Source of the DNA: Nannocystis pusilla
GTDB lineage: Bacteria; Myxococcota_A; Polyangia; Nannocystales; Nannocystaceae
NCBI RefSeq assembly: GCF_051105105.1
Contig: NZ_CP185339.1
Length of the DNA: 64,000 nucleotides
Strand: one strand, 5' to 3'
The notes under the pieces are model-generated. The model was not told the origin of the DNA. It was given only the letters and a program-made list of their open reading frames with translations, and did no database searches. This document shows positions 30,465-45,812 of this stretch, piece after piece. Position 1 is the first letter of the stretch. Each line of letters begins with the position of its first letter. The translations under genes were made by a program, and so were the position numbers.

Positions 30465-31304
30465 TCAGCGGGCCGGGCCGCGCACGAGGACGCGGCCGCG
30501 CGGGGGCTCGGCGGCGGCGCCGACTTGCTGGCAGCGGGGGCAATAATAGGTGGTGCGGCCGAGGGTGCCCTGGCGACGCATGGCGATCGGGGTGTTGCAG
30601 CGCGGGCACAGCTCGCCGGAGCGGTTGTAGACCCAGGTGTTGGCGCGGCCGACGTCCCACCGAGTCTTGCGCGGGCCGGCGCCGACGAGGTTGCGGCGCA
30701 GCCACTTGCGGCCGGCCTCGAGCAATCGCAAAAGCGTCGGATCGTCGTAGTCGCCGACCGGCTTGAACGGGTCGAGCCGCTCCATGAATAGCAGCTCGCT
30801 CTTGTAGACGTTGCCGAGGCCGGCGACGAGGCGCTGATCGAGGATGGCCTCGCCGAGCGGGCGCCGCGGGTCGGCGCGCAGGCGCTGCAGGGCCTCGGCG
30901 ATGGGCTGGTCCGACTCGTCGGGGCCGAGCAGGTCGGGGCCGAGGGCGGAGAGGACCGGGTGGTGCTCGATCTCCCAGGCGCTGAGCCACTCGACCGTGG
31001 GGGCGTAGAAGCAGACCGCGAGCCACGATTCGGTGGCGATCACCGCGCGCGCGGCGGTGGCGGGTTTGCGCCACGGGCTGTTCGGCGGATAGAGGTGCCA
31101 GCTGCCCTCCATGCGCAAATGGGTGTAGAGCGCGTGGGTGCCGTCGAACCAGATCAAAAGGTTCTTGCCGCGGGCCTCGACCGCGGTGATCGTGCGGCCG
31201 ACGAGGGCGAGCTCGGGGATCACCGATTCGAACCGGGTGACGGCCTGGCCGACCATCACCTGCAGGCGGGCGGCGACTTTGTGGAGGGTGTCGCCCTCGG
31301 GCAT
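30465..31304 (-). CDS. nei: Fpg/Nei-family DNA glycosylase, Nei2-type (endonuclease VIII-like).
   Basis: N-terminal MPEGDTLH (compare M. tuberculosis Nei2 MPEGDTVWH) and a C-terminal zinc finger CPRC...CPRC. The start lies 3 nt after the lhr stop. Confidence 0.85.
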   Translation of the reverse strand: MPEGDTLHKVAARLQVMVGQAVTRFESVIPELALVGRTITAVEARGKNLLIWFDGTHALYTHLRMEGSWHLYPPNSPWRKPATAARAVIATESWLAVCFYAPTVEWLSAWEIEHHPVLSALGPDLLGPDESDQPIAEALQRLRADPRRPLGEAILDQRLVAGLGNVYKSELLFMERLDPFKPVGDYDDPTLLRLLEAGRKWLRRNLVGAGPRKTRWDVGRANTWVYNRSGELCPRCNTPIAMRRQGTLGRTTYYCPRCQQVGAAAEPPRGRVLVRGPAR

Positions 31305-31307
31305 GGA

Positions 31308-34300
31308 TCAGCGCCTCCTCGCGCCGAGGCGCGGCTCGTCGCGGCGCAGGATCAGGCCGTCGTGGGTGGGGCGGAAGCCGGCGGCGGTCAATGCTGCGAC
31401 CTGCGGCCAGGAGGGGGCCGGTTGATTGTCGATCTGCTCGAGCAGGACGTAGCGCTGGCCGGTGACCTCGGGCAGCAGCGCGAGGGCCTCGGCGAGCGCC
31501 GCGGTGGCGCGCCCGCGCTCCGGCTCGGCGTCGGGGAGGTGGGTGACGAGAGTGCGGGCGCCGCGGCTCAGGAAGGCGATGAGCCGGCCGTCGCGCAGGA
31601 CGACGCGGGCGCCGGCGGCCCGTTCGAACCTGGCCTCGGGGACATCCGGCCAAGGCAGCGCGGCGCCGTAGGGGTTGGCGGGATCGGTGGCGGCGAGCAG
31701 GACGGTGAAGGGCGCGTCCTCGTCGATGTCCCGGACGTCGCGCAGGCGATCCTCCGCGCCGGGCAGGGCGAACTGGGTCGCGCCGAGGCCGGCGACGAAG
31801 TAGCCGCGGCGCACCCGGCCGGCCTCCTCCATGGCCTTGAGGACAGGATAGACGGCCGCGAAGCCGCCCTCGTGATCCTCGGCGGCGACGGCCTCGCGGG
31901 TGAGGACGCCGTGGCGGGCGAGCAGCTGGCGGGCGCGGGCGGCCCGGCGCTCGGTCTCGTCGACGGGGCGCGGGGTGACGAGCGACCAGCGACCTTCGCT
32001 GCCCGGCGGGCCGCTGCGTCGGCCGCGACCGTCGACGCCGAAGCGCAGCTGCGGACGCGGGCCCCGATCGCCGCCGGCGAGGCGACTGCGCAGACAGGTG
32101 AGGGTGTCGTTGGTGACCTCGCCGGCCCACACGAGGTCCCACAGGGCCTCGAGCAGCTCGTCGACCGGGGCGCGCACCTGGGTGACGAGCTCGGCGAAGA
32201 AGGAGGCGCCGCGGGCCTGCAAGGCCTCGCGCACGCGCGCCGCGAGCTCGCCGGCCGCCGGGGTGGGGTCGGGCGCGAGCCAGGCGGCGTCGTCGGCGAG
32301 GTAGAGCGCGACGTAGCCGTCGGCCTGGCCGAGCGGCCTGACGCCGCGCCAGACGACGTCGCCGGCGCCGCACAAGACGTTGAGATCGGTGGCGCGATAG
32401 TTGGCGACCCGCGCCGGCAGGACCTCGCCCTCGAGCACGGAGGCCGGGATCGCGACTCCTTGCAATTGCTCGATCGCCTGCAGCACCGCCTCGGGGCCCT
32501 CGCGCTCGCCGCCGATGCCCTGCCACGCGAGCGAGAAGCGGCCGAGCACCGCCTGCTCGACCGGCTCGACCTCCTCGCGCAGGCGCGCCAGCGACATGCG
32601 CTTGAGCCGGCGCAGGACCTCGTCGTCGCACCACTCGAGGCCGGCGCCGCGGGGGATGAACTCGCCCTCGACGACCTTGCCGCGGGCGGCGAGCCGGCGC
32701 AGGGCGCCGATGACGAGCGCGGTGCCGACGGCGAAGCGCTGGGCCAGCCACTCGGCGCGGAAGGGGCCGTGCGTGCGCGCGTGGCGGGCGACGAGGTCGG
32801 CCAGCGGATCTTCCACGGACTCGAGGAACACCGCCGGCAGGCCCGGCGGCGAGACGACGCCGAGGGCGTCGCGGTAGCGGCCGGCGTCCTCGGCGGCGAT
32901 GTAGCGCCAGCGACCGCCGAGCTTGACCTTGACGATCCGGCGGGTGTGCGTGAGCTCGGCCAGCCAGCGATCGATGTCGTCTTCGGGGACGCCGGCGCGG
33001 GCGACGAGGTCGTCGCGGTCCTGATCGCCGAGCGCGAGCAGCAGGTCGTGGACCTCGTCGGGATGGTTCAGCTTGCGAGCGCGCCGCTGCAGGGTCGCCT
33101 CGAGCTCGGCGATCGCGTCGGCGTCGAGGAGGTCGCGCAGGGCGGCCTCGCCGAGCAGCGCCTTGAGGCGCGCGTGGTCGATGGTCAGCGCCTGGGCGCG
33201 TCGCTCGGCCAGCGGGGCGTCGCCCTCGTACATGAAGTTGCCGACGTAGGAGAACAGCAGGGCCGCGGCGAACGGGCTCGGGCTGCGCGTCTCGACGTCG
33301 ACGACCTTGATCGCGCGCTGCTCGACGCGGCGCAGCAGGTCGACGCAGCCGGGCAGGTCGAACACGTCCTTCAGGCACTCGCGGTAGGTCTCGAGCACGA
33401 CCGGGAAGTCGCGGAAGCGCGAGGCGGCGGCCAGCAGGTCGGCCGACTTGCGCCGCATGGCCCACAGCGGGGTGCGCTGGCCGGGCCTTCGCTTGACCAG
33501 CAGCAGCGCCCGCCCGGCGTTCTCGCGGAAGCGGGTGGCGAACAGCGAGGTCTCGGCCAGGCGCGCGACCACGCGATCCTCGAGCTCGTCGGCGCGCGGG
33601 AAGAATTGCGTCGGGTCGGGCGCGCGCTCGGCCTCGGGCAGGCGGAACACGATGCCGTCGTCGGACCAGACGACGTCGAGCTCGGCGGCGTAGCGCTCGA
33701 GCAGGGCGCTGCGCACGGCCATGGCCCACGGGGCGTGCACCGCGGCGCCGAACGGCGAGAGGATGCAGACGCGCCAGTCGCCGATCTCGTCGCGGAAGCG
33801 CTCGACGACGATCGTGCGATCGGTGGGCAAGGTCTTGGCCGCCTCCTGCTCCTCGCGCACGTACTGCAGGAGGCTGCGGGCCGCGGCCGGATCGAGGCAG
33901 TGCTGCTGGACGAGGCGGGCCTCGGCGTCGGCGTCGGACAGCGCCCCGAGCTCGCGGATCAGCGCGCCGATCGCCTGGCCGAACTCGAGCGGGCGCCCGG
34001 GGCCGTCGCCGCGCCAGAACGGCAGCTTGCCCGGCTCGCCCGGGGCCGGCGAGACGAGCACGCGGTCGTGGGTGATCTCTTCGATGCGCCACGACGAGGC
34101 GCCGAGCACGAACACGTCGCCGATCCGCGACTCGAACACCATCTCCTCGTCGAGCTCGCCGACGCGGCGGCCGCCCTCGCCGCTGCCGGCGAGGAAGACG
34201 CCGAACAGGCCGCGGTCGGGGATGCTGCCGGCGTTGCCGATCGCCACCCGACGGGCGCCGTGGCGCGCCGACAGCTGGCCGGTGACGCGGTCGTAGTTGA

Positions 34301-35783
34301 CGCGCGGGCGCAGGTCGGCGAAGTCCTCGCTCGGGTAGCGGCCGCTGAGCATGTCGAGCACGCCCTCGAAGGCGTCGCGCGGCAGCTCGGCGTACGGGGC
34401 GGCGGCGCGCAGCTTGTCGTACAGCGCCTCGGCGGCCCAGTCGTCCATCGCCACCGCGGCGACGACCTGCTGGGCGAGGATGTCGAGCGGGTTGCGAGGG
34501 TAACGCGACGACTCGACCTCGCCGGCGAGCATGGCCCGCGCCGCGGCGGCGCACGGCAGCAGGTCGCCGCGGAACTTGGGGATGATGACGCCGCGCGAGC
34601 GCCCGCCGACGTGGTGGTTGGCCCGGCCGACGCGCTGCATGCCGGCGGCGATCGAGGGCGGCGAGGCCAGCTGGATCACGAGGTCGACCGCGCCCATGTC
34701 GATGCCGAGGTCGAGCGAGGAGGTGGCGACGATCGCCGGCAAGGTGCCGCGCTTGAGCTGCTCCTCGACCCCGGCGCGCACGTCCTTGGCCATCGAGCCG
34801 TGGTGCGCGAGCGCCAGCGGCTCGCCGGCGGCCTCGTTGAGCGCCGCGGCGAGCCGCTCGGCGAGGCGGCGGCTGTTGACGAACAGCATCGTCGAGCGAT
34901 GCGCGCGGATCAGCTCGACGAGGCGCGGGTGCAGGGCGGTGAGGTTGGAGCGCGGCAGGCCCGAGATCGCGGTGGGCCCCTCGTTCGCGGCCGGCGGGAC
35001 GTCCTCGATGCTCGCCCCGGGCTCCTCGACGGGCAGCTCGATCCGCAGGTCGAGCTGCTTGACCTGGCCGGCGTCGACGATCGTCACCGGCCGCGGCGCG
35101 ACCGCGTCGCCGTCGACCAGCGAGCCGCCGAGGAAGCGCGCGACCTCGGTGAGCGGGCGCTGGGTCGCGGACAGGCCGATCCGCTGCAGCGGCCGCGCGC
35201 CGGCGCGGAGCCACTCGAGGCGCTCGAGCGAGAGCGCGAGGTGGCTGCCGCGCTTGCTGGCGACGAGGCTGTGGATCTCGTCGACGATCACGGTGTCGAC
35301 CGATCGCAGCATCGCCCGCGATTCGCTGGTCAGCAGCATGTACAGCGATTCGGGCGTGGTGATGAGAATGTCGGGCGGGTGGCGCTGCATGTGCGCGCGC
35401 GCCTTTTGCGGGGTGTCGCCGCTGCGGATCGCCACCGTCGGGGTGTGGACGGTCATGCCGAGCCGGTCCGCGGTGGCGGCGATGCCGGCCAGCGGCGAGC
35501 GCAGGTTCTGCTCAACGTCGACCCCGAGCGCCTTGATCGGCGAGACGTAGACGACGCGGCAGCGCTCCGCCGGCGGCGGCACCGGCGCGAACATGACGCG
35601 GTTGATGGCGCCGAGGAACGCCGCCAGCGTCTTGCCCGAGCCCGTGGGCGCCAGGAGCAGCGTCGATTCGCCGGCCTCGATCGCCGGCCAGCCCGCGACC
35701 TGCGCCGACGTTGGCGCATCGAAGCAGGCCTCGAACCACGCGCGGGCGGCCGGGTGGAGGAACGCGAGCGGATCGCCGATCAC
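31308..35783 (-). CDS. lhr: Lhr-type large ATP-dependent DNA helicase.
   Basis: Walker A APTGSGKT, DEIH box and an approximately 1490-aa Lhr architecture. A GTG start at 35783 (VIGDPLAF) is preferred over the track ATG at 35909. Confidence 0.9.
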   Translation of the reverse strand: MIGDPLAFLHPAARAWFEACFDAPTSAQVAGWPAIEAGESTLLLAPTGSGKTLAAFLGAINRVMFAPVPPPAERCRVVYVSPIKALGVDVEQNLRSPLAGIAATADRLGMTVHTPTVAIRSGDTPQKARAHMQRHPPDILITTPESLYMLLTSESRAMLRSVDTVIVDEIHSLVASKRGSHLALSLERLEWLRAGARPLQRIGLSATQRPLTEVARFLGGSLVDGDAVAPRPVTIVDAGQVKQLDLRIELPVEEPGASIEDVPPAANEGPTAISGLPRSNLTALHPRLVELIRAHRSTMLFVNSRRLAERLAAALNEAAGEPLALAHHGSMAKDVRAGVEEQLKRGTLPAIVATSSLDLGIDMGAVDLVIQLASPPSIAAGMQRVGRANHHVGGRSRGVIIPKFRGDLLPCAAAARAMLAGEVESSRYPRNPLDILAQQVVAAVAMDDWAAEALYDKLRAAAPYAELPRDAFEGVLDMLSGRYPSEDFADLRPRVNYDRVTGQLSARHGARRVAIGNAGSIPDRGLFGVFLAGSGEGGRRVGELDEEMVFESRIGDVFVLGASSWRIEEITHDRVLVSPAPGEPGKLPFWRGDGPGRPLEFGQAIGALIRELGALSDADAEARLVQQHCLDPAAARSLLQYVREEQEAAKTLPTDRTIVVERFRDEIGDWRVCILSPFGAAVHAPWAMAVRSALLERYAAELDVVWSDDGIVFRLPEAERAPDPTQFFPRADELEDRVVARLAETSLFATRFRENAGRALLLVKRRPGQRTPLWAMRRKSADLLAAASRFRDFPVVLETYRECLKDVFDLPGCVDLLRRVEQRAIKVVDVETRSPSPFAAALLFSYVGNFMYEGDAPLAERRAQALTIDHARLKALLGEAALRDLLDADAIAELEATLQRRARKLNHPDEVHDLLLALGDQDRDDLVARAGVPEDDIDRWLAELTHTRRIVKVKLGGRWRYIAAEDAGRYRDALGVVSPPGLPAVFLESVEDPLADLVARHARTHGPFRAEWLAQRFAVGTALVIGALRRLAARGKVVEGEFIPRGAGLEWCDDEVLRRLKRMSLARLREEVEPVEQAVLGRFSLAWQGIGGEREGPEAVLQAIEQLQGVAIPASVLEGEVLPARVANYRATDLNVLCGAGDVVWRGVRPLGQADGYVALYLADDAAWLAPDPTPAAGELAARVREALQARGASFFAELVTQVRAPVDELLEALWDLVWAGEVTNDTLTCLRSRLAGGDRGPRPQLRFGVDGRGRRSGPPGSEGRWSLVTPRPVDETERRAARARQLLARHGVLTREAVAAEDHEGGFAAVYPVLKAMEEAGRVRRGYFVAGLGATQFALPGAEDRLRDVRDIDEDAPFTVLLAATDPANPYGAALPWPDVPEARFERAAGARVVLRDGRLIAFLSRGARTLVTHLPDAEPERGRATAALAEALALLPEVTGQRYVLLEQIDNQPAPSWPQVAALTAAGFRPTHDGLILRRDEPRLGARRR

Positions 35784-35946
35784 GCCTGAAGATGGCCGAG
35801 ATGGCTGCACATGCAAGCAGCGCCGCCAGCGAGCCCAGCCGTGAATCTTGCGATCGACGGCGCGCCGCGGAGCCCGAGCACGCGCGGGTGGGGCGTCGTC
35901 TTTCCTCACTCGCGCGACGCGGCGATTCAGCGCACGCGCGGCGGCC

Positions 35947-37095
35947 TCACGGCTTGCGGCCGGTCTTGTAGCGCGGGTTGCTGTCGTGCCACTCGAACGC
36001 GCCGCCCATCCACGCCCGCAGGGCGCGCAGGAACCGCTGCAGCTCGACGCTGGGGACGGCCTGCAGCTCGCGGTGGCTGGCCTCGAAGTCGCGGACGAGG
36101 TCGTTGTGCAGCTGGACGGTGACCTCGGTCGCCTCGTCGATCGAGCAGCCGCGATCGGCCTTGACCTGCAGCACCATGTTGCACGGCGGCTTCGCGTCCT
36201 CGAGGTCCTTGGCCACCGAATAGAGGTCGTTGACGAGGACGACCGTCGTGCCGGCCAGGAACGCGGCGCGGCGGATCCGCGCGTCGTAGAAGAGCTCGGC
36301 GGGCAGGCGGTAGCCGCCGATGACGTCGCACAGCGTCATCGAGGTGTAAAAGCTGTCGTGCTGGCGCGCGGCCAGGTACTTCCACGCCGGCGGGTACTCG
36401 CCGGTGTGGCGCCACGCCGCGTAGGCGCTCCACGACACGAACATGGCGAAGGTCGCGTAGCAGGTGCGCTGGACCTGCTCGTGCGTGGCGTAGCGGCCCA
36501 TGTGCTCGAGGCCCGAGCGCAGGGCGACGAGCACGCGCTCGGCGTCGATCGCCTGCTCGAGCGGGACGCTGAACTCGCCGGCGCGCGGCAGCGGATCCAT
36601 CGCGGACATCGCCAGGACGAGGCGCGGCGGCAGCTGCTCCGGGACCGCCCCGAGCGCGCTGTCGTCGGCGTAGTAGTCGTCGGCGGCCCACCACGCGGCG
36701 TTCATCTTGGCGCCGATGAGCAGCCGATCCGGATCGTCGCAGTCGGCGTGGGTGAGCATCACCAGCCGGCCGAACCGGGTCTTGCGGATCTTGACGATCT
36801 CGTCGTCGTCGAAGCCGCAGTCCTTGGCCCAGGCGGCGAGCCGCTCGTCGACCTCGTCGGCCAGCGGCTCGTTGATGCGCTCGGTGATCGGGCAGTACAG
36901 CGGCGACGCGCTGCCGTCGCCCCAGCGCCGCCAGGCGTACGCGGGATCGAGGGCCGGCTGCGGCGGGTCGAGGTCGCCGGCGCGGGCCCGATTCAGGAGC
37001 TGCGCGAGGCGAGCGGCGTGCGTCCCCAGGCCGGTCGGTCCGGCGAGGAGGGCGGATACATCGTGCGGGTCCGTCGTGCGCTTGGCCTCAGTCAT
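35947..37095 (-). CDS. Class I terpene cyclase, 2-methylisoborneol-synthase type.
   Basis: Mg-binding motifs AADDYYADD (compare DDCYCED) and VNDLYSVAKDLE (compare NDLYSYTKE). The N-terminal approximately 70 aa are Pro/Ala-rich and low-complexity. It is the last gene of the encapsulin operon. Confidence 0.8.
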   Translation of the reverse strand: MTEAKRTTDPHDVSALLAGPTGLGTHAARLAQLLNRARAGDLDPPQPALDPAYAWRRWGDGSASPLYCPITERINEPLADEVDERLAAWAKDCGFDDDEIVKIRKTRFGRLVMLTHADCDDPDRLLIGAKMNAAWWAADDYYADDSALGAVPEQLPPRLVLAMSAMDPLPRAGEFSVPLEQAIDAERVLVALRSGLEHMGRYATHEQVQRTCYATFAMFVSWSAYAAWRHTGEYPPAWKYLAARQHDSFYTSMTLCDVIGGYRLPAELFYDARIRRAAFLAGTTVVLVNDLYSVAKDLEDAKPPCNMVLQVKADRGCSIDEATEVTVQLHNDLVRDFEASHRELQAVPSVELQRFLRALRAWMGGAFEWHDSNPRYKTGRKP

Positions 37096-37186
37096 CGCTC
37101 GCCTCTGTTGCAGCGGCCGCCTGAATCCGGCGGAAAATTGCGCGGTGCGGGAGGTATGGTCATACCCCCCGCCGGTGCCGTCATTC

Positions 37187-38053
37187 TCAGCGGACGATGC
37201 GGTCCGCGACGATCAGGAGGTAGTGGAAGCTGCCCTCCTTGTAGGCCCGCAGGAACGGATCCTCGACGCCGGTGGCGACCGAGCAGCGGGTCCGGAGCTC
37301 CCAGTACGGGATCGTGTCGGGGGTCAGGTCGGTGACCTCGATCGGCACCAGGTTGTTGGCCGCCATCGCCTTGAAGTACTCGCTGCGCGGGTGGATGTTG
37401 CAGATGTACTTGGCGTCGATCTCGCTGACGGCGCGCGAGCGGCCGCCGGTGATGTCGTTGTAGCAGCCGGTGATGCAGACGTAGCGCCCGCCGTCCTTCA
37501 GCAGCCGCGAGAACTCGCCGTACAGCTTGAACAGGTCGACGTACATCGTGGTCTCGTTGGTCCAGATGGCGTCGATCGAGCCGGTCTCGAAGCCGGTGTC
37601 GAGCATGTTGCGGAAGTGGTACTTCAGCTTGTCAGTGTACCCGCGCTTGGCGGCCTGCTCGTTGGCGAAGCCGACCTGGTACTCCGAGATCGACACGCCG
37701 TCGACCTGGCACTTGAACTTCTCGTAGGCCATGAGGCTGGTGCCGCCGCGGCCGGAGCCGGCGTCGAGCAGGCGGCTCTCGGGCTTGATCGGGCCGAGCT
37801 TCCCCAGCAGGTGCACCGCCTGCGCGTGCTCGAGGCGGTGCAGCTCGCGGATGATGGCGTCGTCGCGCGTGGCCTCGGGCTGCTCCAGCACCGACCAATT
37901 GACGGCGCCGATCCCGTAGTGGTGGTGGTAGTAGCCGTCGACGTGGCCGAGCAGCAGATTGACGGGGTCGTTCTGGTTGGTGTTCCAGTAGTTGGCGACC
38001 GACTTCTGGTATTCGCTGCGCAGGACGCTATTGGCCGTGGTGGGCGTGTTCAT
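37187..38053 (-). CDS. Geranyl diphosphate 2-C-methyltransferase (SAM-dependent; 2-MIB pathway).
   Basis: Near-collinear with Streptomyces GPPMT (SCO7701). Shared segments: YWN...PVNLLLGHVDGYYHHHYGIG, LDAGSGRGG, TNETTMYVDL, GGRYVCITGCYN, CNIHPRSEYFKAMAANNLVP, LTPDTIPYWELR, KEGSFHYLLIVADRI. Confidence 0.9.
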   Translation of the reverse strand: MNTPTTANSVLRSEYQKSVANYWNTNQNDPVNLLLGHVDGYYHHHYGIGAVNWSVLEQPEATRDDAIIRELHRLEHAQAVHLLGKLGPIKPESRLLDAGSGRGGTSLMAYEKFKCQVDGVSISEYQVGFANEQAAKRGYTDKLKYHFRNMLDTGFETGSIDAIWTNETTMYVDLFKLYGEFSRLLKDGGRYVCITGCYNDITGGRSRAVSEIDAKYICNIHPRSEYFKAMAANNLVPIEVTDLTPDTIPYWELRTRCSVATGVEDPFLRAYKEGSFHYLLIVADRIVR

Positions 38054-38122
38054 GATCGTTGGTTCTCTTTCGTTGCACTGTGACGAGGCGCCCCAAGGTG
38101 GCGCCTGCCTCGGCGAGGGCGC

Positions 38123-39526
38123 TCAGCGCCCGATCTCGATGTTTTCCAGGATCCCGAGCGCGTCCGGGATCAGGACCGCTGCGGAGTAGTAGGTGCTGAC
38201 GAGGTACGAGGCGACCGCCTTCTCGTTGGTGCCCATCCTGCGGACGGACAGGCCGGGTTCGCGCTCGTCGGGGAGGCCGCTGCGATACAGGCCGATGACG
38301 CCCTGGGCGTCCTGGCCGACGCGCATGGCGAGGATCGAGCTGGTCTGCGTCTCGGAGATCGGAATCTTGTCGCACGGGAGGATCGGCACGCCGCGCCAGC
38401 CGGCGACGATGGACCCCTCGTATTCGACGTTCGGCGGATCGAGCCGGCGGCGGGTGCACTCGCGGCGGAAGGCGGCGATCGTCCGCGGGTGGGCCAGGAA
38501 AAACCGGGTCTTGCGGCGCCGGCACAGCAGCTCGTCCATGTCGTCGGGCGTCGGCGGGCCGCTGCGAGTGTTGATCCGCTGCTTGTAATCGGCGTTGTGA
38601 AGCAGGCCGAAGTCGCGGTTGTTGACGAGCTCGTACTCCTGCCGCTCGCGCAGGGCGTCGATGGTCAGGCGCAGCTGCTCCTCGAGCTGGTCCATCGGAT
38701 CGTTGAACAGATCCGACACCCGCGAATGGACCTGCAGGATGGTCTGCGCGAGGCTCAATTCGTACTCGCGCGGCGAGGCCTCGTAATCGACGAAGGTGCC
38801 CGGCAAGGTGACCTCGCCGTGGTGGCCGGCGGTCAAGCGGATGGCGGCCTGGCCGTGCTTGTCCTGCGGGGTCTTCAGCAGCTCCTTGTAGCGCTCGACG
38901 TGGGCGCGCAGGGCGCCCGAGCGGCCGATCAGCTCCTCGAACACCGCCTGCGGCAGCGCGAGGACGATGCACGGCGTGACCGCCTTGACGCTGTAGTCCC
39001 AGGCGTCGTCGTCCTGCACGAGCGCCTGATCGCCGAAGTGGGCGCCGTCGGCGATCACCTCGAGCAGGGCCTCCTCGCCGTAAGGACCCTGGCCGAGCTT
39101 GTGGGCCTTGCCGTGGACCAGCAGGTACACATGATCGGCCGGCTTGCCGCGCTCGGCGATGAGCTGCCCCGGCTTGAACTCGGACTGCACGAAACGGCTG
39201 GCGAGGTGCGACAGCACCTCGTCGTCGGAAAATCCGCGCAGGAGCGGCAGCTCGGTGAGCTCGGCCGGGATCACCTGAGCCTTGGCGCCGATGTTGGTAA
39301 ACTCGATCCGTCCGTCCCCGACCGCGACGTTCATGCGGCGATTGACGCGGAACGTGCCACCGGTGACGTCGACCCAGGGCAGCGAGCGGAGCAGCCAGCG
39401 AGGCGTGCGCCCCTGGTTCTGCGGCGGGGTCTTGGTGGTCGTCGCCAGCTGCCGCGCGGCCCGGGTCCCGAGGCTCATCGGCTGCTGTCCGTCGCCGTCA
39501 CGGCCGGACTTCTCGAACATCGACAT
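38123..39526 (-). CDS. Family 2B encapsulin shell protein (an HK97-fold capsid-like C-terminal part with an inserted N-terminal CAP-type cNMP-binding domain), copy 2.
   Basis: 467 aa. cNMP-binding segment [38 protein letters not shown]. It is paralogous to the upstream gene. Such proteins were historically annotated as cnb in mib operons. A GGAGA Shine-Dalgarno sequence sits 8 nt upstream. Confidence 0.8.
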
Positions 39527-39607
39527 GTCATCGTCTCCAGGCAGGCATCACGGACGGTGGCGCCCCGGGCCGCGAGGACCGGAGCGCCGATGGGCGCGAC
39601 AGGGCCG

Positions 39608-41005
39608 TCAGTCGGCGCGGCCGATCTCGACGCTCTCGAGGATGCCGAGGGCGTCCGGGATCTGGACGGCGGCCGAGTAATAGAGGCTGACCAGGTACGA
39701 GATGATCGCCTTCTCGTTGATGCCCATGAAGCGCACCGACAGGCTCGGCTCGATCTCGTCGGGGATGCCCTTGTGGTGCAGGCCGATGACGCCCTGGTTC
39801 TTCTCGCCGACGCGCATCAGCAGGATCGAGGTGGTGCGCGTGTCGGAGATCGGGATCTTGTTGCACGGGAAGATCGGCACGCCGCGCCACGAGGGGACGT
39901 GATGGCCGCCCAGATCGATCGGCGTCGGGTAGATGCCCGCGCGGTTGCACTCGTGGCCGAACGCCGCGATGGTCCGCGGGTGGGCGAGGAAGAAAGCCGG
40001 CTCCTTCCACACCAGCGCCAGCAGGTTGTCCATGTCGTCCGGCGTCGGCGGGCCGCTGCGGGTGTGAATCCGCTGCTTGAGGTCGGCGTTGTGAAGCAGG
40101 CCGAACTCGTGGTCGTTGATGAGCTCGTGCTCCTGGCGCTCCTTCAGCGCCTCGACGGTCAGGCGCAGCTGCTCCTGCGTCTGATTCATCGGGTCGTTGA
40201 ACAGGTCGGCCACGCGCGTGTGGACCTGCAGGACGGTCTGGGCGACGCTGAGCTCGAACTCCCGCGGCGAGGTCTCGTAGTCGACGAAGGTGCCCGGCAG
40301 CACGGGCTCGCCCGAGTGGCCGGCGGCGACCTCGATCGCGGCCTGGCCGCTGTTGTCCTGCTTCTTCTGCGAGCGCGCCTTGAACTCCTCGACGTGCTTG
40401 CGCAGCGACGGGTGCTGGGCGACCAGCTCCTCGAAGGACGCCTGCGACAGGGTGAGGACGGTGCCGGCGGTCACTGCCTTGGCGGTGAACGTCCAGTAGT
40501 CCTGGGATTCGAGGATCGCCTGGTACGAGTAATGATCGCCGTCGGCCAGGGTCTCCAGGATGCTCTCGTCGCCGTACTTGCCGGTGCCGATCTTGTTGAC
40601 CTTGCCGTGGGCGATGAGGACCATCTCGTTGGCCTCGTTGCCCTTCTGCGTCAGGACGTCGCCCGCCTTGAACTCCTTCTGGACGAAGCGACCGGCGAGG
40701 ACACCCAGCACCTCGAGGTCTTCGTAGCCGCGGAACAGCGGCAGCTCGGTCAGCTCCAGCGGCACGACCTGGATCTTGGCGCCGGTGTTGTAGAAGGTGA
40801 CGCGGCCGTCGCCGACGGCGTAGCTCAGGCGACGATTGAGGCGGAAGACGCCGTTGACGTGCACCCAGGGCAACAATTTGAGCAGCCAGCGGGACGAGAT
40901 TCCCTGCATCTGCGGCGGGGACTTCGTCGTGGTGGCGAGCTGGCGCGCTGCAGCCGTCGAGAGGCTGGTCTGCTGATCATTTCCCGGCTTTCCTGCGATC
41001 GACAT
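39608..41005 (-). CDS. Family 2B encapsulin shell protein, copy 1.
   Basis: About 465 aa. The start was set at MSIAGKPG (AAGGA Shine-Dalgarno sequence 7 nt upstream), which aligns with MSMFEKSG of copy 2. cNMP-binding segment [40 protein letters not shown]. Confidence 0.8.
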
Positions 41006-41173
41006 GACTATCCTTTTCACGGGCAGCTCTGCTGCCGTTTCCAAAATTCTGCTCGACAGGGGGCCGTGTCGGCGAAATTCGGCCCTTCGCGGTTCGAGCT
41101 CGCGGGCGGAGGTTACGCTCCGTCATCGCGAGGCGTCAAGACAAATTCGGGGAACGAAGATTAATTAAACGAT

Positions 41174-41194
41174 GCATTCGCGACTGTCGAATGC
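41174..41194. promoter_or_regulatory. Inverted repeat GCATTCG-n7-CGAATGC next to the low-GC TTAATTAA element in the leader of the encapsulin/2-MIB operon.
   Basis: Read directly from the sequence, about 170 nt upstream of the first encapsulin start. Confidence 0.35.
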
Positions 41195-42003
41195 GCGACC
41201 CAGCGCGCGGAGGGCCAGGTAAACCGAGCTGCGCCGGGTCGCGCGATTCGAAGCGAGTCCCGCACTGCCATGCAGGAAATGATGCGTGTTCTATTCGTGA
41301 CCCGGTGCTGCGATGTAACCCGGGGTGTGCGGAGGGTCCGAACGAGCGGCGGAAGTGGCGATTCCGATCTGCGGCTGATTCGCGGCGCACGCGAAATGCA
41401 CATGGTCGGCGGCGCCCCGGGAGAGTTCGTAAAGGCGTGACCGCGGCGGTCGCTGATTCCCGCGCGGCGCGGGCCCGCACGCGGCCCGCGGGCAGGCAAT
41501 GGCCATTGTGATCGCGCGGCATTGCACCGCCCGCGCGACGCGAGGGCGCAGGCCCGCGCCGCCGCATCGACGCGCAGGGTCGCGCCAGGGCGCGTGAGCG
41601 CGGGCAATACGCTGTTCCCGCGACGGTCGCGATCTCCTTTATTAAGGTCGAGGTAAGGCCCGACGAAATGCGAGCGAGGGCGAGTCGCGCGCGGCGCCGC
41701 GACCGGGCCGGAGGGCCGGGCGCGTATACGCGAGGCGGACGCGACGCGCGCCCCGCCGATGGGCCCGCGGGCCGGTGCAGCGCGCGTGCGGTGCCGGGGC
41801 GCGTGAGCGACGGCCGGCTGCGGCGCCGCGAGTGCGGGCCGAACGACCCGGAGGGCGAGGGCGACAGGCTATCATTGGAATCGGGCGAGAACCACCGACC
41901 TCGACCGTGAGGCCCCATTCGCAATGGGCGTCGCGGCCGGCGGTGAATGCGTCGTCGATGCGATCGGAGGTGGGCCCGGCGCGAGCCCCATTGAAGGAAG
42001 CGG

Positions 42004-42030
42004 CCGAACGCCGTGTCTCACGGCGTTCGG
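42004..42030 (-). terminator. Perfect 12-bp-stem hairpin CCGAACGCCGTG-tct-CACGGCGTTCGG, 15 nt 3' of the fibrinogen-like lipoprotein stop.
   Basis: Read directly from the sequence. Confidence 0.5.
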
Positions 42031-42044
42031 CAGGGATCCGGCGC

Positions 42045-43703
42045 TCAGCGGACCATCAGCCAGCGGGCGGCGCCGGGCTTGTGACAGTCGTGGACCGGGC
42101 CTACTGCGTCGAGGGTGTTCGGGTCGGTGGCGAAGGTGTCGGCGGAGGGGCTGACGACCGCGGCGCCCTTCCACGGGTAGTTGACGAGGCCGCAGCCGTA
42201 CTGGTTCTGGGCCACCTCGTCGATGTGCCAGGCGCCGGCGCAGCCCTCGGAGGTTCCGACGTGCCAGGTGCAGATGGTCTTGTTCTGCACGAAGTTGCCC
42301 TTGAGGCGGGCCTCCTTGTAGAGCACCTGCGACCAATTGAAGCAGCTGTTCGGTCCGCCTTGACCGTTGAACAGGTTGCCGGCAGCGGTCAACAGGTAGT
42401 CGTCGCCGCGGCAGTCGATGCGCATGTCGGTCGAGAGGTCGCGCAGGACGGTCATCTGCGTCTTGGACAGGCGATGGCGGGCGTTGGCGGGGTCGGCGGC
42501 GTTGACGGGGAGGTCGTTGTAGAGCGCCTTGCCGATGGTCTGGGCGCCGAGCGGGCTGCGCTCGAGCACGGTCCAGCCGCCGCCGGCGGTGACCATGTCG
42601 CAGAAGACGGGGTAGCCGGCCTGGCCGCCGACGCCGTCGGGGTCGATGACGTAGACGCCGCTCGGGAGCATCGGCACGGCCGCTTGCAGGTCCTCGCAGG
42701 TCGTCGGGACGGTGCAGGCGCTGGTGCAGCCGTCGCCGTCGATGTCGTTGCCGTCGTCGCATTGCTCGACGCCGACGTGGATGACGCCGTCGCCGCAGGT
42801 GGCGGCCTTGCAATCGGCGAGGCAAGCGTCGCTGTCGTCGGCGTCGGCGTCGTCGCACTCCTCGACGCCGGACTGCACGTGGCCGTCGCCACAAATGGCG
42901 GTTTGGCAGGTGGCGAGGCAGGCGTCGCTGTCGTCGGCGTCGCCGTCGTCGCATTGCTCGACGCCGTCCTGGACGTGGCCGTCGCCGCAGGTGGCGGTCT
43001 GGCAGGTGGAGAGGCAGGCGTCGGCGTCGTCGGCGTTGCCGTCGTCGCATGGCTCGACGCCGGCCTGGACGTGGCCGTCGCCGCAGCTGGCCGCGAGACA
43101 GGTGGAGAGGCAGGCGTCGGTGTCGTCGGCGTTGGCGTCGTCGCAGGCCTCGCCGTTCTGGACCGCTCCGTCGCCGCAGGTGGCGAGGGCGCAGGTGTTG
43201 CTGCAGGCGTCGTCGTCGACGTCGTTGGCGTCGTCGCAGGCCTCGACGCCGGCGTGGACGAGGCCGTCGCCGCACACGGCCTCGGCGCAGGCGAGGGTGC
43301 AGTTGCCGTCGTCGGCGTTGTCGGGGCCGGCGTCGCAGGCCTCGCCGTCGTCGACCTCGCCGTCGCCGCAGAACGGGGCGGGGCCGGTGCTGGTGGAGTC
43401 GGTGGTGTCGACCGACGTGGTGGTGCCGTCGGTGGTGGTGGTCGAGGTCGTGGTGGTGTCGCCGGTGGTGTCGCCGGTGGTGGTGGTCGAATCGGTGGCG
43501 TCGCCGGTGCCGAGCGTGCTGTCGCCGGTCGTCGGCACGCCGGTGGTCGTGGTCGGCTCACTGCTGCTGTCGCCGCTGGTCGTCGCCTGCGTGTCCGTGC
43601 CGGTGGCCGTATCGGTGGTGACCGCGACGCCGCTGTCTCCGCACGCCGCCGCGACGAGCACCGTCGCAAATGCACCCCTGCTCCCCCATACAAACAGTTT
43701 CAT
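42045..43703 (-). CDS. Secreted lipoprotein with a Thr-rich linker, 7 tandem Myxococcales-type cysteine-rich repeats and a C-terminal fibrinogen-related (FReD) domain.
   Basis: Signal MKLFVWGSRGAFATVLVAAAC. Seven repeats of approximately CGDGxVQxGEECDDGNxxDxDxCxxxCxxAx. The FReD signature is AGYPVFCDMVTAGGGWTVLERS. Confidence 0.85.
   Translation of the reverse strand: MKLFVWGSRGAFATVLVAAACGDSGVAVTTDTATGTDTQATTSGDSSSEPTTTTGVPTTGDSTLGTGDATDSTTTTGDTTGDTTTTSTTTTDGTTTSVDTTDSTSTGPAPFCGDGEVDDGEACDAGPDNADDGNCTLACAEAVCGDGLVHAGVEACDDANDVDDDACSNTCALATCGDGAVQNGEACDDANADDTDACLSTCLAASCGDGHVQAGVEPCDDGNADDADACLSTCQTATCGDGHVQDGVEQCDDGDADDSDACLATCQTAICGDGHVQSGVEECDDADADDSDACLADCKAATCGDGVIHVGVEQCDDGNDIDGDGCTSACTVPTTCEDLQAAVPMLPSGVYVIDPDGVGGQAGYPVFCDMVTAGGGWTVLERSPLGAQTIGKALYNDLPVNAADPANARHRLSKTQMTVLRDLSTDMRIDCRGDDYLLTAAGNLFNGQGGPNSCFNWSQVLYKEARLKGNFVQNKTICTWHVGTSEGCAGAWHIDEVAQNQYGCGLVNYPWKGAAVVSPSADTFATDPNTLDAVGPVHDCHKPGAARWLMVR
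42714..43370 (-). repeat. Seven tandem approximately 90-bp coding repeats (Cys-rich 30-aa modules).
   Basis: Periodicity is visible at both the protein and nucleotide level. Confidence 0.8.
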
Positions 43704-44011: not shown

Positions 44012-44782
44012 TCACCAGGGAGTCTCACCGCTCGCTTCCACGAACCGGCCGGAGACGGCGTCAGCGCCGCGCAGCGCGTGCTCGACTGGCAACCTCGCGC
44101 CCTCCTCGGCAGTCAGGAAACCCTGGTGCCCGGTCAGGTCGGTCTTGACGTATCCCGGGCTCACGGAGGTGACGACGATCGGCGTGTCGCGCAGCTCTTC
44201 GCCGAGCTGGACGGTGAGCATGTTGAGGGCCGCCTTGGAGGCGTTGTAGCCGATCAACCGCGCCGAATAATAGGGCGAGGTCGGATCGCCGTTGAGCGTG
44301 AGCGAACCGAGGGAGCTGGACAGATTGACGATCCGCGCGCCCGGCGAGTTTCGCAGCAGCGGGAGCATCGCCTGCGTCACCGCCAGGGTGCCGACGAAGT
44401 TCGTGTTCATGATCTTGCGAACGGCCGCGATCGATGCGGCGCCGGGCGGACCGTCCTCGGCGTCGACGATGCCGGCGTTGTTGACGAGGATGTCGAGACG
44501 ACCGTGCTCGGCGGCGATCGATGCGGCGGCGGCGGCGATGCTCGCCTCGTCCTCGAGGTCGATCCGGAGCGCCCGTGCTGCCAGTCCCTGGCGCGCCAGA
44601 TCGTCGACGGCTGCGCTCGCGCGGCCGCGGTCGCGCGCGCCGATGAGGACGAAGACGCCGGCTCGTGCGAGCTGCCGGGCGATCTCCAGGCCGATGCCCT
44701 TGTTCGCGCCGGTGACGAGCGCGACGCGCGTCGTCACTCGATCCGCGGAGGTGTCGTCGTTTCCAGGAATCTTATCGTTCAT
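44012..44782 (-). CDS. SDR-family oxidoreductase (carbonyl-reductase-like).
   Basis: Glycine motif TGANKGIG, NNAG, S...YNASK. The start MNDKIPG is at 44782. Confidence 0.85.
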   Translation of the reverse strand: MNDKIPGNDDTSADRVTTRVALVTGANKGIGLEIARQLARAGVFVLIGARDRGRASAAVDDLARQGLAARALRIDLEDEASIAAAAASIAAEHGRLDILVNNAGIVDAEDGPPGAASIAAVRKIMNTNFVGTLAVTQAMLPLLRNSPGARIVNLSSSLGSLTLNGDPTSPYYSARLIGYNASKAALNMLTVQLGEELRDTPIVVTSVSPGYVKTDLTGHQGFLTAEEGARLPVEHALRGADAVSGRFVEASGETPW

Positions 44783-44870
44783 GCGTGGAGTTCTAGGCCG
44801 CAGCGACGTGACGACCAAGGCCGAGCGGCGCACGACTCTGTTGCTTGCCGGTCAACAATTGGGGGAGACT

Positions 44871-45812
44871 GGGGTGGTGGATCCGTTCAGCGAGATCGGC
44901 GTGTTCGTCCGCGTGGTGGAGAAGCGGAGCTTCACGCTCGCGGCCCGCACGATGGGCCTCACCGCGTCCGGCGTCAGCCGTGCGATCGCGCGGCTCGAGG
45001 GGCGCCTCGGCGTTCGCCTGCTGGAGCGGAGCACCCGCAGCGTCGGGCTCACCGCCGACGGGGCCGTCTACTACGAGCGCTGCACTCGCATCCTCCGCGA
45101 GCTCGAGGAGGCCGACAGGGCGGTCGCCAGCACCCGCAGCGCCCCCCGCGGGAGGCTCCGCGTCGACGCCCCCTCGATGTTCGGGAGCTACGTGCTCGGC
45201 CCGGCGATCGGGCGCTTCCTCGCGGCGTACCCCGAGCTGTCCGTCGATCTCAGCCTCCGCGATCATCTCGTCGACCCCATCGCCGAAGGGATCGACGTCG
45301 TGTTGCGAATGGCGAAGCTGCGCGAGAGCGAGCTCATGCAGAAGCACCTCGGCACGATGCCGCTGGTGATCGTCGGCACGCCGGATTACTTCGCGCGCCG
45401 CGGTCGGCCGGCCTCCGTCGAGGACCTCCGCCGGCACGACACTCTGGGCTTCCTCGTCGGGTCGATGCCCCTCCCGTGGAAGCTCCGGCACGAGGACGGC
45501 GAGCTCGCGCTCATGCCGACGGGACGGTTCTACTCGAACGGCATCGCGGCGATCCTCGAAGCGGCGCGCGCGAGCCAGGGCATCGTGCAAGTCTTCGAGC
45601 ACGTGGTGCGCGAGGACCTCGCGCGCGGCACGTTCGAGGTGGTCCTGCGACCCGAGCTCCAGCAAGAGGTGCCGGTCGCCGCCCTCTTCGCGAAGGAGAA
45701 GGCGCAGCTCCCGAAGGTGCGCGTGTTCCTCGAATTCATGGCCGAGCTGATGCGCGCGACCGCCAAGCGCGCCGTCCCGGCGAAGCGGCGCGAAGGGGTG
45801 CGGCGGTCGTAG
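44871..45812 (+). CDS. LysR-family transcriptional regulator, divergent from the SDR gene.
   Basis: HTH segment FVRVVEKRSFTLAARTMGLTASGVSRAIARLEGRLGVRLLERSTRS. A GTG start at 44871 was chosen. The track ORF starts far upstream, antisense to the SDR gene. Confidence 0.8.
   Translation, partial: GVVDPFSEIGVFVRVVEKRSFTLAARTMGLTASGVSRAIARLEGRLGVRLLERSTRSVGLTADGAVYYERCTRILRELEEADRAVASTRSAPRGRLRVDAPSMFGSYVLGPAIGRFLAAYPELSVDLSLRDHLVDPIAEGIDVVLRMAKLRESELMQKHLGTMPLVIVGTPDYFARRGRPASVEDLRRHDTLGFLVGSMPLPWKLRHEDGELALMPTGRFYSNGIAAILEAARASQGIVQVFEHVVREDLARGTFEVVLRPELQQEVPVAALFAKEKAQLPKVRVFLEFMAELMRATAKRAVPAKRREGVRRS

Follow-up and report, generated by a model that had tools for sequence, protein, structure and literature searches.

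The window, i.e., the whole 64,000-nucleotide stretch of Nannocystis pusilla DNA that was analysed, carries on its minus strand, between 35947 and 41005, four co-directional genes coding, in this order, for two Family 2B encapsulin shell proteins (Enc1 and Enc2), a geranyl diphosphate (GPP) 2-C-methyltransferase (MT), and a 2-methylisoborneol (2-MIB) synthase-type terpene cyclase (TC); 2-MIB is a musty odorant. All four ORFs lie where the first-pass annotation had placed them, their GC3 of 0.93-0.98 is in the range expected for real genes of this genome, and their products score 748, 746, 491, and 462 bits, far beyond chance, against curated NCBIfam models with a cut-off of 400 bits; each of the four also shows the Pfam domains expected of it. 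The genes are separated by 81, 69, and 91 bp, so that the earlier figure of at most 90 bp holds for the first two gaps and is exceeded by 1 bp in the last. A scan called no terminators between the four genes; from this and the gaps of 69-91 bp only, we infer that they are co-transcribed.

A candidate sigma-70-like promoter of the operon is located at 41110..41139 on the minus strand, about 105 nt before the start codon of Enc1, and consists of a -35 element (TTGACG, 41139-41134), an 18-nt spacer, and a -10 element (TAACCT, 41115-41110). In a comparison of six Nannocystis loci, the hexamers are invariant and the spacer is variable; a consensus promoter scan did not call this element because its -10 hexamer fits the consensus at only 3 of 6 positions. 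The Enc1-Enc2-MT-TC order is kept in N. pusilla, N. punicea, N. bainbridge, and RBIL2, as well as in two Nannocystaceae MAGs and one Polyangia MAG, and the window is 97-98% identical to N. pusilla and RBIL2.

The first gene (39608..41005, minus strand) codes for Enc1, which matches the NCBIfam model encap_f2b with 748 bits (cut-off 400). Its longest ORF (39608-41044) would give 478 aa from a TTG, while the start is probably the ATG at 41005, which results in a protein of 465 aa; six species share the AAAGGA ribosome-binding site and this ATG, whereas a GTG further upstream falls out of frame in one of the loci compared (L002). The second gene (38123..39526, minus strand) codes for Enc2, a protein of 467 aa that scores 746 bits with the same model and is 62% identical to Enc1, which bears out the two paralogues of about 465 aa proposed previously. 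Both contain a CAP-fold domain (approximately 40412-40678 in Enc1, 38921-39181 in Enc2) followed by an HK97/SrpI-like domain (approximately 39617-40378 and 38126-38875, respectively), and the peptides MVLIAHGK...YSYQAILES and YLLVHGK...FGDQALV, quoted before as the CAP-type part, are found at aa 128-167 of Enc1 and aa 134-170 of Enc2. The CAP-type domain is thus present, but it does not sit at the very N-terminus as had been stated, being preceded by an N-arm and a metal-binding subdomain of about 100 residues.

The remainder of both proteins is a family 2 encapsulin, as had been read. Specifically, Enc1 matches PF19307 with 450 bits, its best structural matches are 9bix and 9bje (E 7.7e-189) and 9bhu (1.5e-185), and Enc2 aligns with Sl-Enc2 (9bix; E 3.6e-183) and, gaplessly over residues 16-466, with the S. 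griseus shell protein Sg Enc (9bhu; E 2.7e-175); taken together, the E values of the two shells against the solved cryo-EM structures of Family 2B lie between 1e-170 and 1e-189. The AlphaFold2 (AF2) monomer model of Enc2 is poor (pLDDT 56), so the shell fold is supported here by sequence identity to proteins of known structure. The diagnostic motifs of two-component 2B shells defined in PMC11071501 are present in both proteins, LVWK plus [10 protein letters not shown] in Enc1 and RRRK in Enc2, and together with the upstream/downstream order of the genes they fit that two-component type.

The pocket that receives the cargo-loading domain (CLD) distinguishes the two proteins. In Enc1, all four pocket residues (L, L, F, Y) are conserved; in Enc2, the position of F430 is occupied by Arg (codon 38237-38239), and Enc2 may therefore not bind cargo as Enc1 does. 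This Arg is one small new lead from the locus. Among the 120 closest Enc2 homologues, 112 have a residue other than Phe at this position (R/K/H/N/Q/A). The named homologues of this kind are almost all Myxococcota.

The first-pass annotation had also proposed that the CAP-type domains may bind cAMP or cGMP and thereby gate the compartment, opening or closing it, or control it in some other way. PF00027 is indeed above its threshold of 27.5 bits in both shells (53.6 bits in Enc1; 64.4 bits at aa 116-202 of Enc2), the corresponding part of the model superposes on the cNMP-binding domains of PKG and CRP (TMt 0.72-0.79), and mixed Myxococcus xanthus shells show a closed two-fold pore state, which makes some regulation of the pores plausible. 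However, the phosphate-binding-cassette (PBC) Arg (CAP R82; Sg Enc W176) is replaced by Trp in both window shells, in each of the 28 other Family 2B shell sequences of the alignment (29 in total), and in 120 of 120 Enc2 homologues, and the Enc1 cassette reads Y-S-Y in place of F-G-E, with loss of the Gly-Glu pair. Moreover, four orthogonal assays of the S. griseus homologue revealed neither binding of nor response to cAMP: no binding was detected by DSF, on cAMP-agarose, or by cryo-EM at 20 mM cAMP, and cAMP affected neither the kinetics nor the product of 2-MIB synthase (2-MIBS); folds of this type that lack the cassette Arg bind other ligands (PMC11550324). Gating by cyclic nucleotides is accordingly very improbable, and this part of the earlier reading is not retained.

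The third gene (37187..38053, minus strand; 288 aa) codes for a SAM-dependent GPP 2-C-methyltransferase, in agreement with the earlier assignment: it scores 490.7 bits with the NCBIfam equivalog GPPMT_Stmyces (cut-off 400), matches 4f84 (E 1.2e-92) and 3vc1 (1.8e-90), and is 78% identical over its full length to mtf of Pseudanabaena (locus L014). It carries no cargo-loading motif and presumably resides outside the shell.

The fourth gene (35947..37095, minus strand; 382 aa) codes for a class I terpene cyclase and predicted encapsulin cargo (f2_encap_cargo2, 461.6 bits, cut-off 400). Both Mg-binding motifs on which its assignment had been based are found, DDYYADD at aa 139-145 (36661-36681) and NDLYSVAKD at aa 289-297 (36205-36231), the PDB match to S. 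coelicolor 2-MIBS (3v1v) has an E of 2.4e-41, and Foldseek of the AF2 model (pLDDT 84.8) likewise returns the 2-MIBS structures 4la6 and 3v1v as best matches (TMt 0.87-0.89). A main product other than 2-MIB, such as the C11 homomonoterpenes 2-methylenebornane or 2-methyl-2-bornene, formed from 2-methyl-GPP by the same operon, is unlikely. By the account given in PMC5908152, 2-methylenebornane synthases are 2-MIBS homologues that also use 2-methyl-GPP, and both enzymes yield a broad range of C11 by-products, so that homology does not prove the product; in addition, the cargo model of NCBIfam is of the broad "exception" type rather than a product-level equivalog, and the Foldseek structural alignments show no more than 28-30% identity to the S. 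coelicolor enzyme of known structure. Conversely, the cyclase is 71% identical over its full length to mtc of Pseudanabaena L014, with an identical DDYYADD and a near-identical NSE motif; the published NIES-512 primers match this locus exactly in 7 of 8 cases, and the NIES-512 mtf-mtc pair yields 2-MIB in Escherichia coli (PMC10580876). Many cyclase homologues of 65-80% identity are called 2-methylisoborneol synthase by JGI, and Nannocystis exedens is a documented 2-MIB producer that makes the compound by GPP methylation (Dickschat 2007, as cited in PMC11550324). The clade of the cyclase is shared with cyanobacteria and Pseudonocardiaceae and is distant from Streptomyces 2-MIBS.

The N-terminus of the cyclase is predicted to be a disordered cargo-loading domain (aa 1-50; 36946..37095, minus strand), as AF2 assigns pLDDT values of 36-58 to residues 1-50 and values above 90 to the chain from about residue 51 onward. 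The extension noted previously is therefore real, but it measures about 50 rather than 70 aa and is not really low-complexity, since it holds the conserved peptide GPTGLGTHAAR (aa 19-29; 37009-37041), whose presence argues for the loading role suggested for it. Across 38 homologues, G22, G24, and T25 never vary and conservation reaches 90% or more at P20, L23, A27, A28, and R29, and GPxGxGT is matched in 49 of 60 related loci. The peptide fits the CLD consensus sequences GPxGLGT and GPxGxGTxxL (PMC11550324) and the cargo-loading peptide (CLP) GPN/TGLGTSAAR of M. xanthus (10.64898/2026.07.21.739788), and peptides of this type mediate loading experimentally in both systems.

A role without any compartment, in which the Cnb/EshA-like proteins are soluble regulators, according to the older transcription-factor/EshA view, or form two separate shells of which one is tied to 2-MIB, with the cyclase free in the cytosol, has a very small probability. 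An encapsulin is missing from about 20% of the 2-MIB clusters of actinobacteria (PMC11550324), many related cyclase loci keep the motif with no shell gene within 8 kb, mtf-mtc alone is enough for 2-MIB in E. coli, encapsulation leaves 2-MIBS kinetics unchanged in vitro, and no shells form when MxEnc2, or one member of the S. lydicus shell pair, is on its own. Against this stand the lack of a DNA-binding domain in the shell proteins, the entire C-terminal half of which forms an HK97/SrpI capsid domain with 60-65% identity to shell proteins seen by cryo-EM, and the retention of both the CLP in the cyclase and the complete CLD pocket in Enc1. Furthermore, mixed shells were obtained in both two-component systems studied (PMC11071501; 10.64898/2026.07.21.739788), and in cyanobacteria the Cnb proteins localise to compartments within the cell and lead to retention of 2-MIB (PMC12159092).

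The locus is thus very probably a Nannocystis 2-MIB biosynthetic operon whose cyclase is housed inside a two-protein Family 2B encapsulin shell, and the core of the first-pass annotation (two shells, methyltransferase, cyclase cargo, loading extension) is right on every component, with no observation speaking against the identity of the operon. Gene identities, domain architecture, the diagnostic, cargo-loading, and catalytic motifs, and the conservation of the operon across Nannocystaceae are read here from sequence, while the 2-MIB product and the lack of cAMP binding are inferred from characterised homologues, and the Streptomyces and Myxococcus systems are the basis for expecting shell assembly, mixed shells, and cargo loading. 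By this analogy, a free cytosolic methyltransferase would use SAM to convert GPP to 2-methyl-GPP, which would enter through large two-fold pores a T=1 shell of 60 HK97-fold subunits, while 2-MIB would leave by the same route. The cyclase would be tethered inside, its disordered N-terminus docking via GPTGLGTHAAR into hydrophobic pockets located inside the shell at its three-fold axes; Enc1 would be the self-assembling, cargo-binding protomer and Enc2 would join the shell stochastically, with the CAP-fold domains placed on the exterior and not acting as cyclic-nucleotide sensors.

The system is a known one: its type has been catalogued and is annotated automatically, and it has been characterised by experiment in close relatives. 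There is little new in the operon, because RefSeq names Nannocystis orthologues of Enc2 and the cyclase (89-98% identical) as Family 2B shell and cargo and conservation of the 2-MIB cluster within the genus is already reported (PMC12224551, PMC10435759). Nor is experimental work on 2B systems sparse, as had been asserted: cryo-EM and biochemistry are published for a 2-MIBS-loaded shell (PMC11550324), a two-component shell (PMC11071501), and a myxobacterial two-component shell loaded with geosmin synthase (bioRxiv 10.64898/2026.07.21.739788), alongside in vivo work on the cyanobacterial Cnb proteins (PMC12159092).

The S. griseus Sg Enc (EshA)/2-MIBS/MT system (PMC11550324; 9bhu) shares with the window a 2B shell with an external CAP-fold domain and Trp for the PBC Arg, the gapless alignment with Enc2, 2-MIBS cargo with a disordered N-terminal CLD bearing GPxGLGT, and a separate GPP methyltransferase in the operon. 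It differs in having one shell gene instead of two, another gene order, and a CLD of about 120 aa rather than about 50, and Streptomyces 2-MIBS is distant from the window cyclase (E 2e-41). The S. lydicus pair Sl-Enc1/Sl-Enc2 (PMC11071501; 9bje, 9bix) provides the best PDB matches, with TVWK in Enc1 in place of LVWK, RRRK in both Enc2 proteins, and Enc1 upstream of Enc2; however, both Sl proteins have Phe where the window Enc2 has Arg, the host is an actinomycete, and the constructs studied are shells and not the 2-MIB pathway. The M. xanthus GeoA system is likewise myxobacterial; its two 2B shell genes are neighbours that share about 63% identity, its cargo is a terpene cyclase, and its CLP is nearly identical. 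That cargo, however, is a two-domain geosmin synthase whose CLPs are internal and C-terminal, instead of a single-domain 2-MIBS with one N-terminal CLP, the shell genes lie downstream of geoA rather than upstream of the enzymes, and the methyltransferase is an addition of the window. Lastly, Pseudanabaena cnbA-mtf-mtc-cnbB (PMC10580876, PMC12159092, PMC3072421) contains the nearest enzymes of proven function (cyclase 71%, MT 78% identical), two 2B shell genes, and MT followed by TC with similar gaps. In contrast to the upstream tandem of the window, its shell genes flank the enzymes (Enc-MT-TC-Enc) and are transcribed independently of mtf-mtc (PMC10580876), and both Cnb proteins keep F430 and carry the RR-type motif 1, so that a VWK-type Enc1 is missing there.

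The locus codes for a Family 2B encapsulin with two shell paralogues and for a 2-methylisoborneol (2-MIB) pathway, and both the observation and the core interpretation of the first-pass annotation are correct. Specifically, four co-directional ORFs lie on the minus strand where that annotation had placed them, namely the upstream and downstream shell paralogues Enc1 (39608-41044, 478 aa counted from a TTG) and Enc2 (38123-39526, 467 aa), the GPP 2-C-methyltransferase MT (37187-38053, 288 aa), and the 2-MIB-synthase-type cyclase TC (35947-37095, 382 aa); the peptides and motifs that it had quoted were each located at the expected place. The GC3 of the four genes is 0.93-0.98, which is typical for real genes in a genome of about 70% GC. 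Enc1 most likely starts at the ATG at 41005, giving a protein of 465 aa: this codon and its ribosome-binding site AAAGGA, 6 nt upstream, are kept in six Nannocystis loci, and the alternative GTG at 41020, in frame in the window, is out of frame in N. punicea. The Enc1/Enc2, Enc2/MT, and MT/TC distances are 81, 69, and 91 bp, so that the earlier description of gaps of 90 bp or less holds for the first two but not for the third. Inspection of the neighbouring genes found neither isoprenoid precursor genes nor a regulator next to the operon. None of the neighbours is tied to terpene metabolism; they include an Lhr-type helicase of 1533 aa, whose ORF starts 37 bp past the TC stop, followed by an Fpg/Nei DNA glycosylase (both minus strand, within 30465-35909), and, upstream of the operon, a protein that looks secreted and combines DUF4215 Cys-rich repeats with a fibrinogen-like domain (42045-43703, minus strand) and, at about 3 kb, a regulator of the LysR family whose ORF, as called, has a long N-terminal extension (44292-45812, plus strand).

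The intergenic region 5' of Enc1 spans about 1 kb (41006-42044, minus strand; GC locally lower, at 0.64), and its conservation across Nannocystis species is limited to the proximal 250 bp or so. The most conserved part holds a TTGACG-18 nt-TAACCT element (41139-41110, minus strand), preceded on its 5' side by an AT-rich TTTAATTAAT box (41170-41161, minus strand), and a GGGCCG...CGGCCC inverted repeat lies in the predicted leader, within the same proximal stretch. The TTGACG-18 nt-TAACCT element is a candidate promoter that was picked by cross-species conservation and not by a consensus scan; a sigma-70 consensus scan of the operon called zero sites. A terminator scan returned two sites, on the plus strand only and fewer than the shuffle expectation, and is neutral on the operon boundaries. 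Moreover, the Rfam model RF02735 (Sernc350, Saccharopolyspora antisense sRNA 350) matches the plus strand at 40479-40967 and 38985-39492 with 90-122 bits, that is, antisense to the 5' 500 nt or so of both shell genes. The same was found in seven further loci spanning Myxococcota, Cyanobacteria, and Actinomycetota (L002, L008, L011, L014, L016, L029, and L032), where, with the shell genes mapped by tblastn, all 13 matches, one per gene, are antisense over the corresponding 5' part. Because every match takes this position, the model in effect detects conserved coding sequence, and it was rejected as independent RNA evidence: a nucleotide profile derived from conserved coding DNA would be expected to give this pattern.

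The assignment of both paralogues to the Family 2B shells, made in the first-pass annotation, is borne out by the agreement of NCBIfam, Pfam, and solved-structure matches. Enc1 and Enc2, which are 62% identical to each other, score 748 and 746 bits with the NCBIfam model encap_f2b (cut-off 400), and both carry the HK97-like, SrpI-type capsid domain (PF19307, 450 and 444 bits) and the inserted CAP/cNMP-binding-fold domain that separates 2B from 2A shells (PF00027, 53.6 and 64.4 bits; cut-off 27.5). In the PDB search, the solved 2B shells 9bix and 9bje (Enc2 and Enc1 of Streptomyces lydicus) and 9bhu (Sg Enc of S. griseus) were matched with E-values of 1e-170 to 1e-189, and Family 2A shells with 1e-80 to 1e-95. 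The AlphaFold2 monomer of Enc2 is poor (pLDDT 56, pTM 0.36, from a shallow alignment of 38 sequences), and a Foldseek search with it put 9bhu, 9bix, 9bje, 8t6r, and 6x8m on top, all 2B or 2A shells, with TM-scores of 0.3-0.5 that are unusable as a fold test; the shell assignment therefore rests on identity to solved structures. A two-component 2B system is defined by two shell genes less than 10 kb apart, Enc1 upstream and Enc2 downstream, with the diagnostic motifs TVWK in Enc1 versus RRRK in Enc2 (motif 1) and AVDFHGHSLP versus GAELHGTDVR (motif 2) (Dutcher et al., PMC11071501). Here, the two genes are adjacent and co-directional in this order, and both motifs are found: motif 1 reads LVWK in the upstream protein and RRRK in the downstream one, a close match to the published forms, and motif 2 agrees in position in both proteins and in type for Enc1 (xxDxxGHxxP), more loosely for Enc2. 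From proteins with solved shells that are 60-65% identical, we infer that Enc1 and Enc2 would self-assemble into a T=1 icosahedral shell and encapsulate cargo.

The CAP-fold part of the shell model matches PKG and CRP domains in Foldseek (TMt 0.72-0.79). As Enc2 aligns gap-free to Sg Enc over residues 16-466, the Sg Enc numbering transfers directly, and it was through this alignment that the position of the phosphate-binding Arg was assigned according to PMC11550324. In Sg Enc, W176 stands in place of CAP R82, as is said of essentially every 2B shell (PMC11550324), and the equivalent residue is Trp in Enc1, in Enc2, in all 28 other shells aligned (29 in all), and in 120 of 120 Enc2 homologues. 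Neither shell thus combines the Arg (R82) and the Gly-Glu pair (G71-E72) of a canonical cNMP-binding phosphate-binding cassette. Enc1 has Y-S-Y (40540-40550, aa ~160-162) where the cassette normally has F-G-E, a triplet common to the Enc1-type shells of five Nannocystis genomes and two Nannocystaceae MAGs, and Enc2 has F-G-D; the paralogues therefore differ in how far the CAP-fold pocket has diverged. Sg Enc showed no cAMP binding by DSF, cAMP-agarose, or cryo-EM, and cAMP left the activity of its 2-MIB synthase (2-MIBS) unaffected (PMC11550324). Gating of the compartment by cyclic nucleotides, which the first-pass annotation had put forward, is not supported because of the Trp at the R82 position in both shells, the Y-S-Y of Enc1, and the lack of cAMP binding by Sg Enc; the reading of the shell as cNMP-gated was rejected on the Arg-to-Trp substitution and the published binding results. 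The domain has a CAP-like fold, yet it should not be classed as a cNMP sensor, and for annotators, a "cNMP-binding" label on 2B shells does not amount to evidence of cyclic-nucleotide sensing.

As had been proposed, the third gene is of the GPP 2-C-methyltransferase type. MT matches the NCBIfam equivalog NF041943 (GPPMT_Stmyces) with 490.7 bits (cut-off 400) over model positions 1-272 of 272, a match at the level of the characterised enzymes, and the GPPMT structures 4f84 and 3vc1 with E-values of 1.2e-92 and 1.8e-90. TC scores 461.6 bits with f2_encap_cargo2 (NCBIfam; cut-off 400) and 103.7 bits with PF19086 (Terpene_syn_C_2), and its best PDB match is the S. coelicolor 2-MIB synthase (E 2.4e-41). 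It has the fold of a class I terpene cyclase, the best Foldseek matches of its folded part being the 2-MIBS crystal structures 4la6 and 3v1v (TMt 0.87-0.89), together with the Asp-rich and NSE Mg-binding motifs DDYYADD (aa 139-145) and NDLYSVAKD (aa 289-297), whose D139, D140, D144, D145, N289, D290, S293, K296, and D297 do not vary among 38 homologues. For both enzymes, the nearest relatives with a functional anchor are cyanobacterial: the Pseudanabaena cinerea locus (L014) codes for a cyclase 71% and a methyltransferase 78% identical over the full length, with an identical DDYYADD, and of the eight primers published for the cnbA-mtf-mtc-cnbB genes of P. foetida NIES-512, seven match it exactly, at gene ends. 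The mtf-mtc (methyltransferase-cyclase) pair of Pseudanabaena NIES-512 is enough for 2-MIB formation in Escherichia coli (PMC10580876), and N. exedens has long been known to produce 2-MIB (Dickschat 2007, as cited in PMC11550324). Judging from the identity of TC and MT to a validated pair, the adjacent GPPMT, and the chemistry of the genus, the main product is most likely 2-MIB; that the two enzymes chiefly yield another C11 terpene instead is unlikely on the sequence evidence.

The N-terminal extension of TC, described in the first-pass annotation as a possible cargo-loading domain of approximately 70 aa, keeps this role at a shorter length. In the AlphaFold2 model (mean pLDDT 84.8), aa 1-50 have values of 36-58 and the chain exceeds 90 from about residue 51, so the disordered domain comprises about 50 aa; within it, GPTGLGTHAAR (aa 19-29), conserved in homologues, corresponds to the published loading peptides GPxGLGT and GPxGxGTxxL of 2-MIBS (PMC11550324) and GPN/TGLGTSAAR of the geosmin synthase GeoA of Myxococcus xanthus (10.64898/2026.07.21.739788). 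Across loci, the motif does not track the shell gene, as 18 of the 23 loci that have a shell gene carry it and so do 31 of the 37 that lack one within 8 kb, with several of the misses being start-codon or frameshift artefacts of sequence extraction. Among Actinomadura and Spirillospora (L039-L057), TC-MT loci with no 2B shell gene within 8 kb have cyclases that keep GPxGLGTSAA; there, a shell gene may lie in another part of the genome, or the peptide may serve another role.

By analogy with the characterised systems, MT, which has no loading peptide, would act in the cytosol, and its product 2-methyl-GPP would enter a T=1 shell, presumably a stochastic mixture of Enc1 and Enc2, through the large two-fold pores. 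TC would be tethered inside by its N-terminal peptide to pockets at the three-fold axes, and 2-MIB would leave through the same pores. The purpose of encapsulation is debated: it left the kinetics of 2-MIBS unaffected in S. griseus (PMC11550324), raised the stability and product titre of GeoA in M. xanthus (10.64898/2026.07.21.739788), and kept 2-MIB inside the cell in cyanobacteria with the Family 2B shell Cnb (PMC12159092).

The residues that line the docking pocket differ between the paralogues. In Sg Enc, the hydrophobic L264, L285, F430, and Y441 lie beneath the cargo density at the three-fold axis (PMC11550324); Enc1 has all four (L, L, F, Y), and Enc2 has L, L, R, Y, with Arg for F430 at codon 430 (38237-38239, minus strand, from the alignment to Sg Enc). 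The equivalents of L264, L285, and Y441 are invariant here, and only F430 varies. Residue 430 is Phe in every Enc1, every recovered cyanobacterial Cnb, Sg Enc, both S. lydicus shells, and one Pseudonocardiaceae Enc2, and Arg, Lys, or Gln in every Enc2 of the Nannocystaceae/Polyangia loci (L001-L004 and L007-L009). It is other than Phe (R, K, H, N, Q, or A) in 112 of the 120 closest Enc2 homologues, with a tally of R 63, K 34, H 8, N 5, Q 2, A 1, and F 7; all of them but one variant (SLRKKSR) have the RR-type motif 1 of Enc2, and those with a named source are almost all from Myxococcota, including Myxococcus, Archangium, Sorangium, Polyangium, and Chondromyces. The F430 substitution is mentioned neither in the M. 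xanthus preprint (10.64898/2026.07.21.739788), in which a term search gave no match for "arginine" or "phenylalanine", nor in the other cited 2B work. The substitution suggests that the myxobacterial Enc2 may have a weakened cargo pocket. It is possible, albeit doubtful, that Enc2 in the myxobacterial two-component 2B shells is a "cargo-blind" modulator protomer that has lost the docking-pocket Phe. In M. xanthus, the closed pore state was seen in mixed shells only (10.64898/2026.07.21.739788). If Enc2 can neither bind GPTGLGT nor, like the M. xanthus Enc2, assemble alone, the Enc1:Enc2 ratio would determine how many cargo sites of a shell can be used as well as the state of the pores, and the duplication of the shell gene would then have a concrete function.

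The operon has close relatives. TC is 98% identical to a protein of N. pusilla, Enc2 has 92% identity to a protein of N. bainbridge and 89% to one of N. punicea, and the best loci of a genome-collection scan were those of N. pusilla Na p29 and Nannocystis sp. RBIL2 (97% each). Mapping the four proteins onto 60 related loci by tblastn gave the order Enc1-Enc2-MT-TC in seven loci (four Nannocystis species, two Nannocystaceae MAGs, and one Polyangia MAG), Enc-MT-TC-Enc in Cyanobacteria, and MT-TC(-Enc) or TC-MT in actinomycetes, so that the tandem upstream shells are the arrangement that a known operon type takes in the Nannocystaceae. TC and MT are far nearer to the cyanobacterial enzymes (71-78% identity) than to the Streptomyces 2-MIBS (E 2e-41, about 29% in structural alignment), while the shells are only about 64% identical to the cyanobacterial Cnb and the gene order differs as well; these disparities hint that the two enzymes passed horizontally between Myxococcota and Cyanobacteria. 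In N. radixulma NCELM (L005:7400-8100), for which a "differing organization" has been described (PMC10435759), the operon is decayed: Enc2 is reduced to its first ~11 and last ~121 codons, and a second deletion fuses the first ~15 MT codons to TC at about residue 27, with loss of the MT body and of GPTGLGT. Either the strain has naturally lost the capacity to make 2-MIB, or the deletions are an artefact of the assembly.

In drinking water and in aquaculture, 2-MIB causes major problems of taste and odour, and recirculating aquaculture systems are a setting in which Nannocystis has been flagged as a producer. The placement of the pathway in a two-component encapsulin is useful context for the odour problem and is not new. 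What the analysis adds is modest and lies solely in the testable detail of the Enc2 pocket, which bears on why there are two shell proteins. The system itself was catalogued in the 2021 encapsulin census, which put the number of terpene-cyclase operons of Family 2B at 904, including 114 in "Proteobacteria", and noted the C-methyltransferase/2-MIBS-like pairing, the GPTGLGT consensus, and double shells about 60% identical (PMC8346489). It has dedicated NCBIfam models and is annotated automatically, the RefSeq names of the orthologues being [quoted passage not shown] and "family 2B encapsulin nanocompartment shell protein". The genus is likewise already known for 2-MIB production and for this cluster, which antiSMASH-based work found in Nannocystis strains and listed as genus-conserved (PMC10435759, PMC12224551), and homologous shells, their cargo loading, and their two-component assembly have already been characterised in Streptomyces and Myxococcus.
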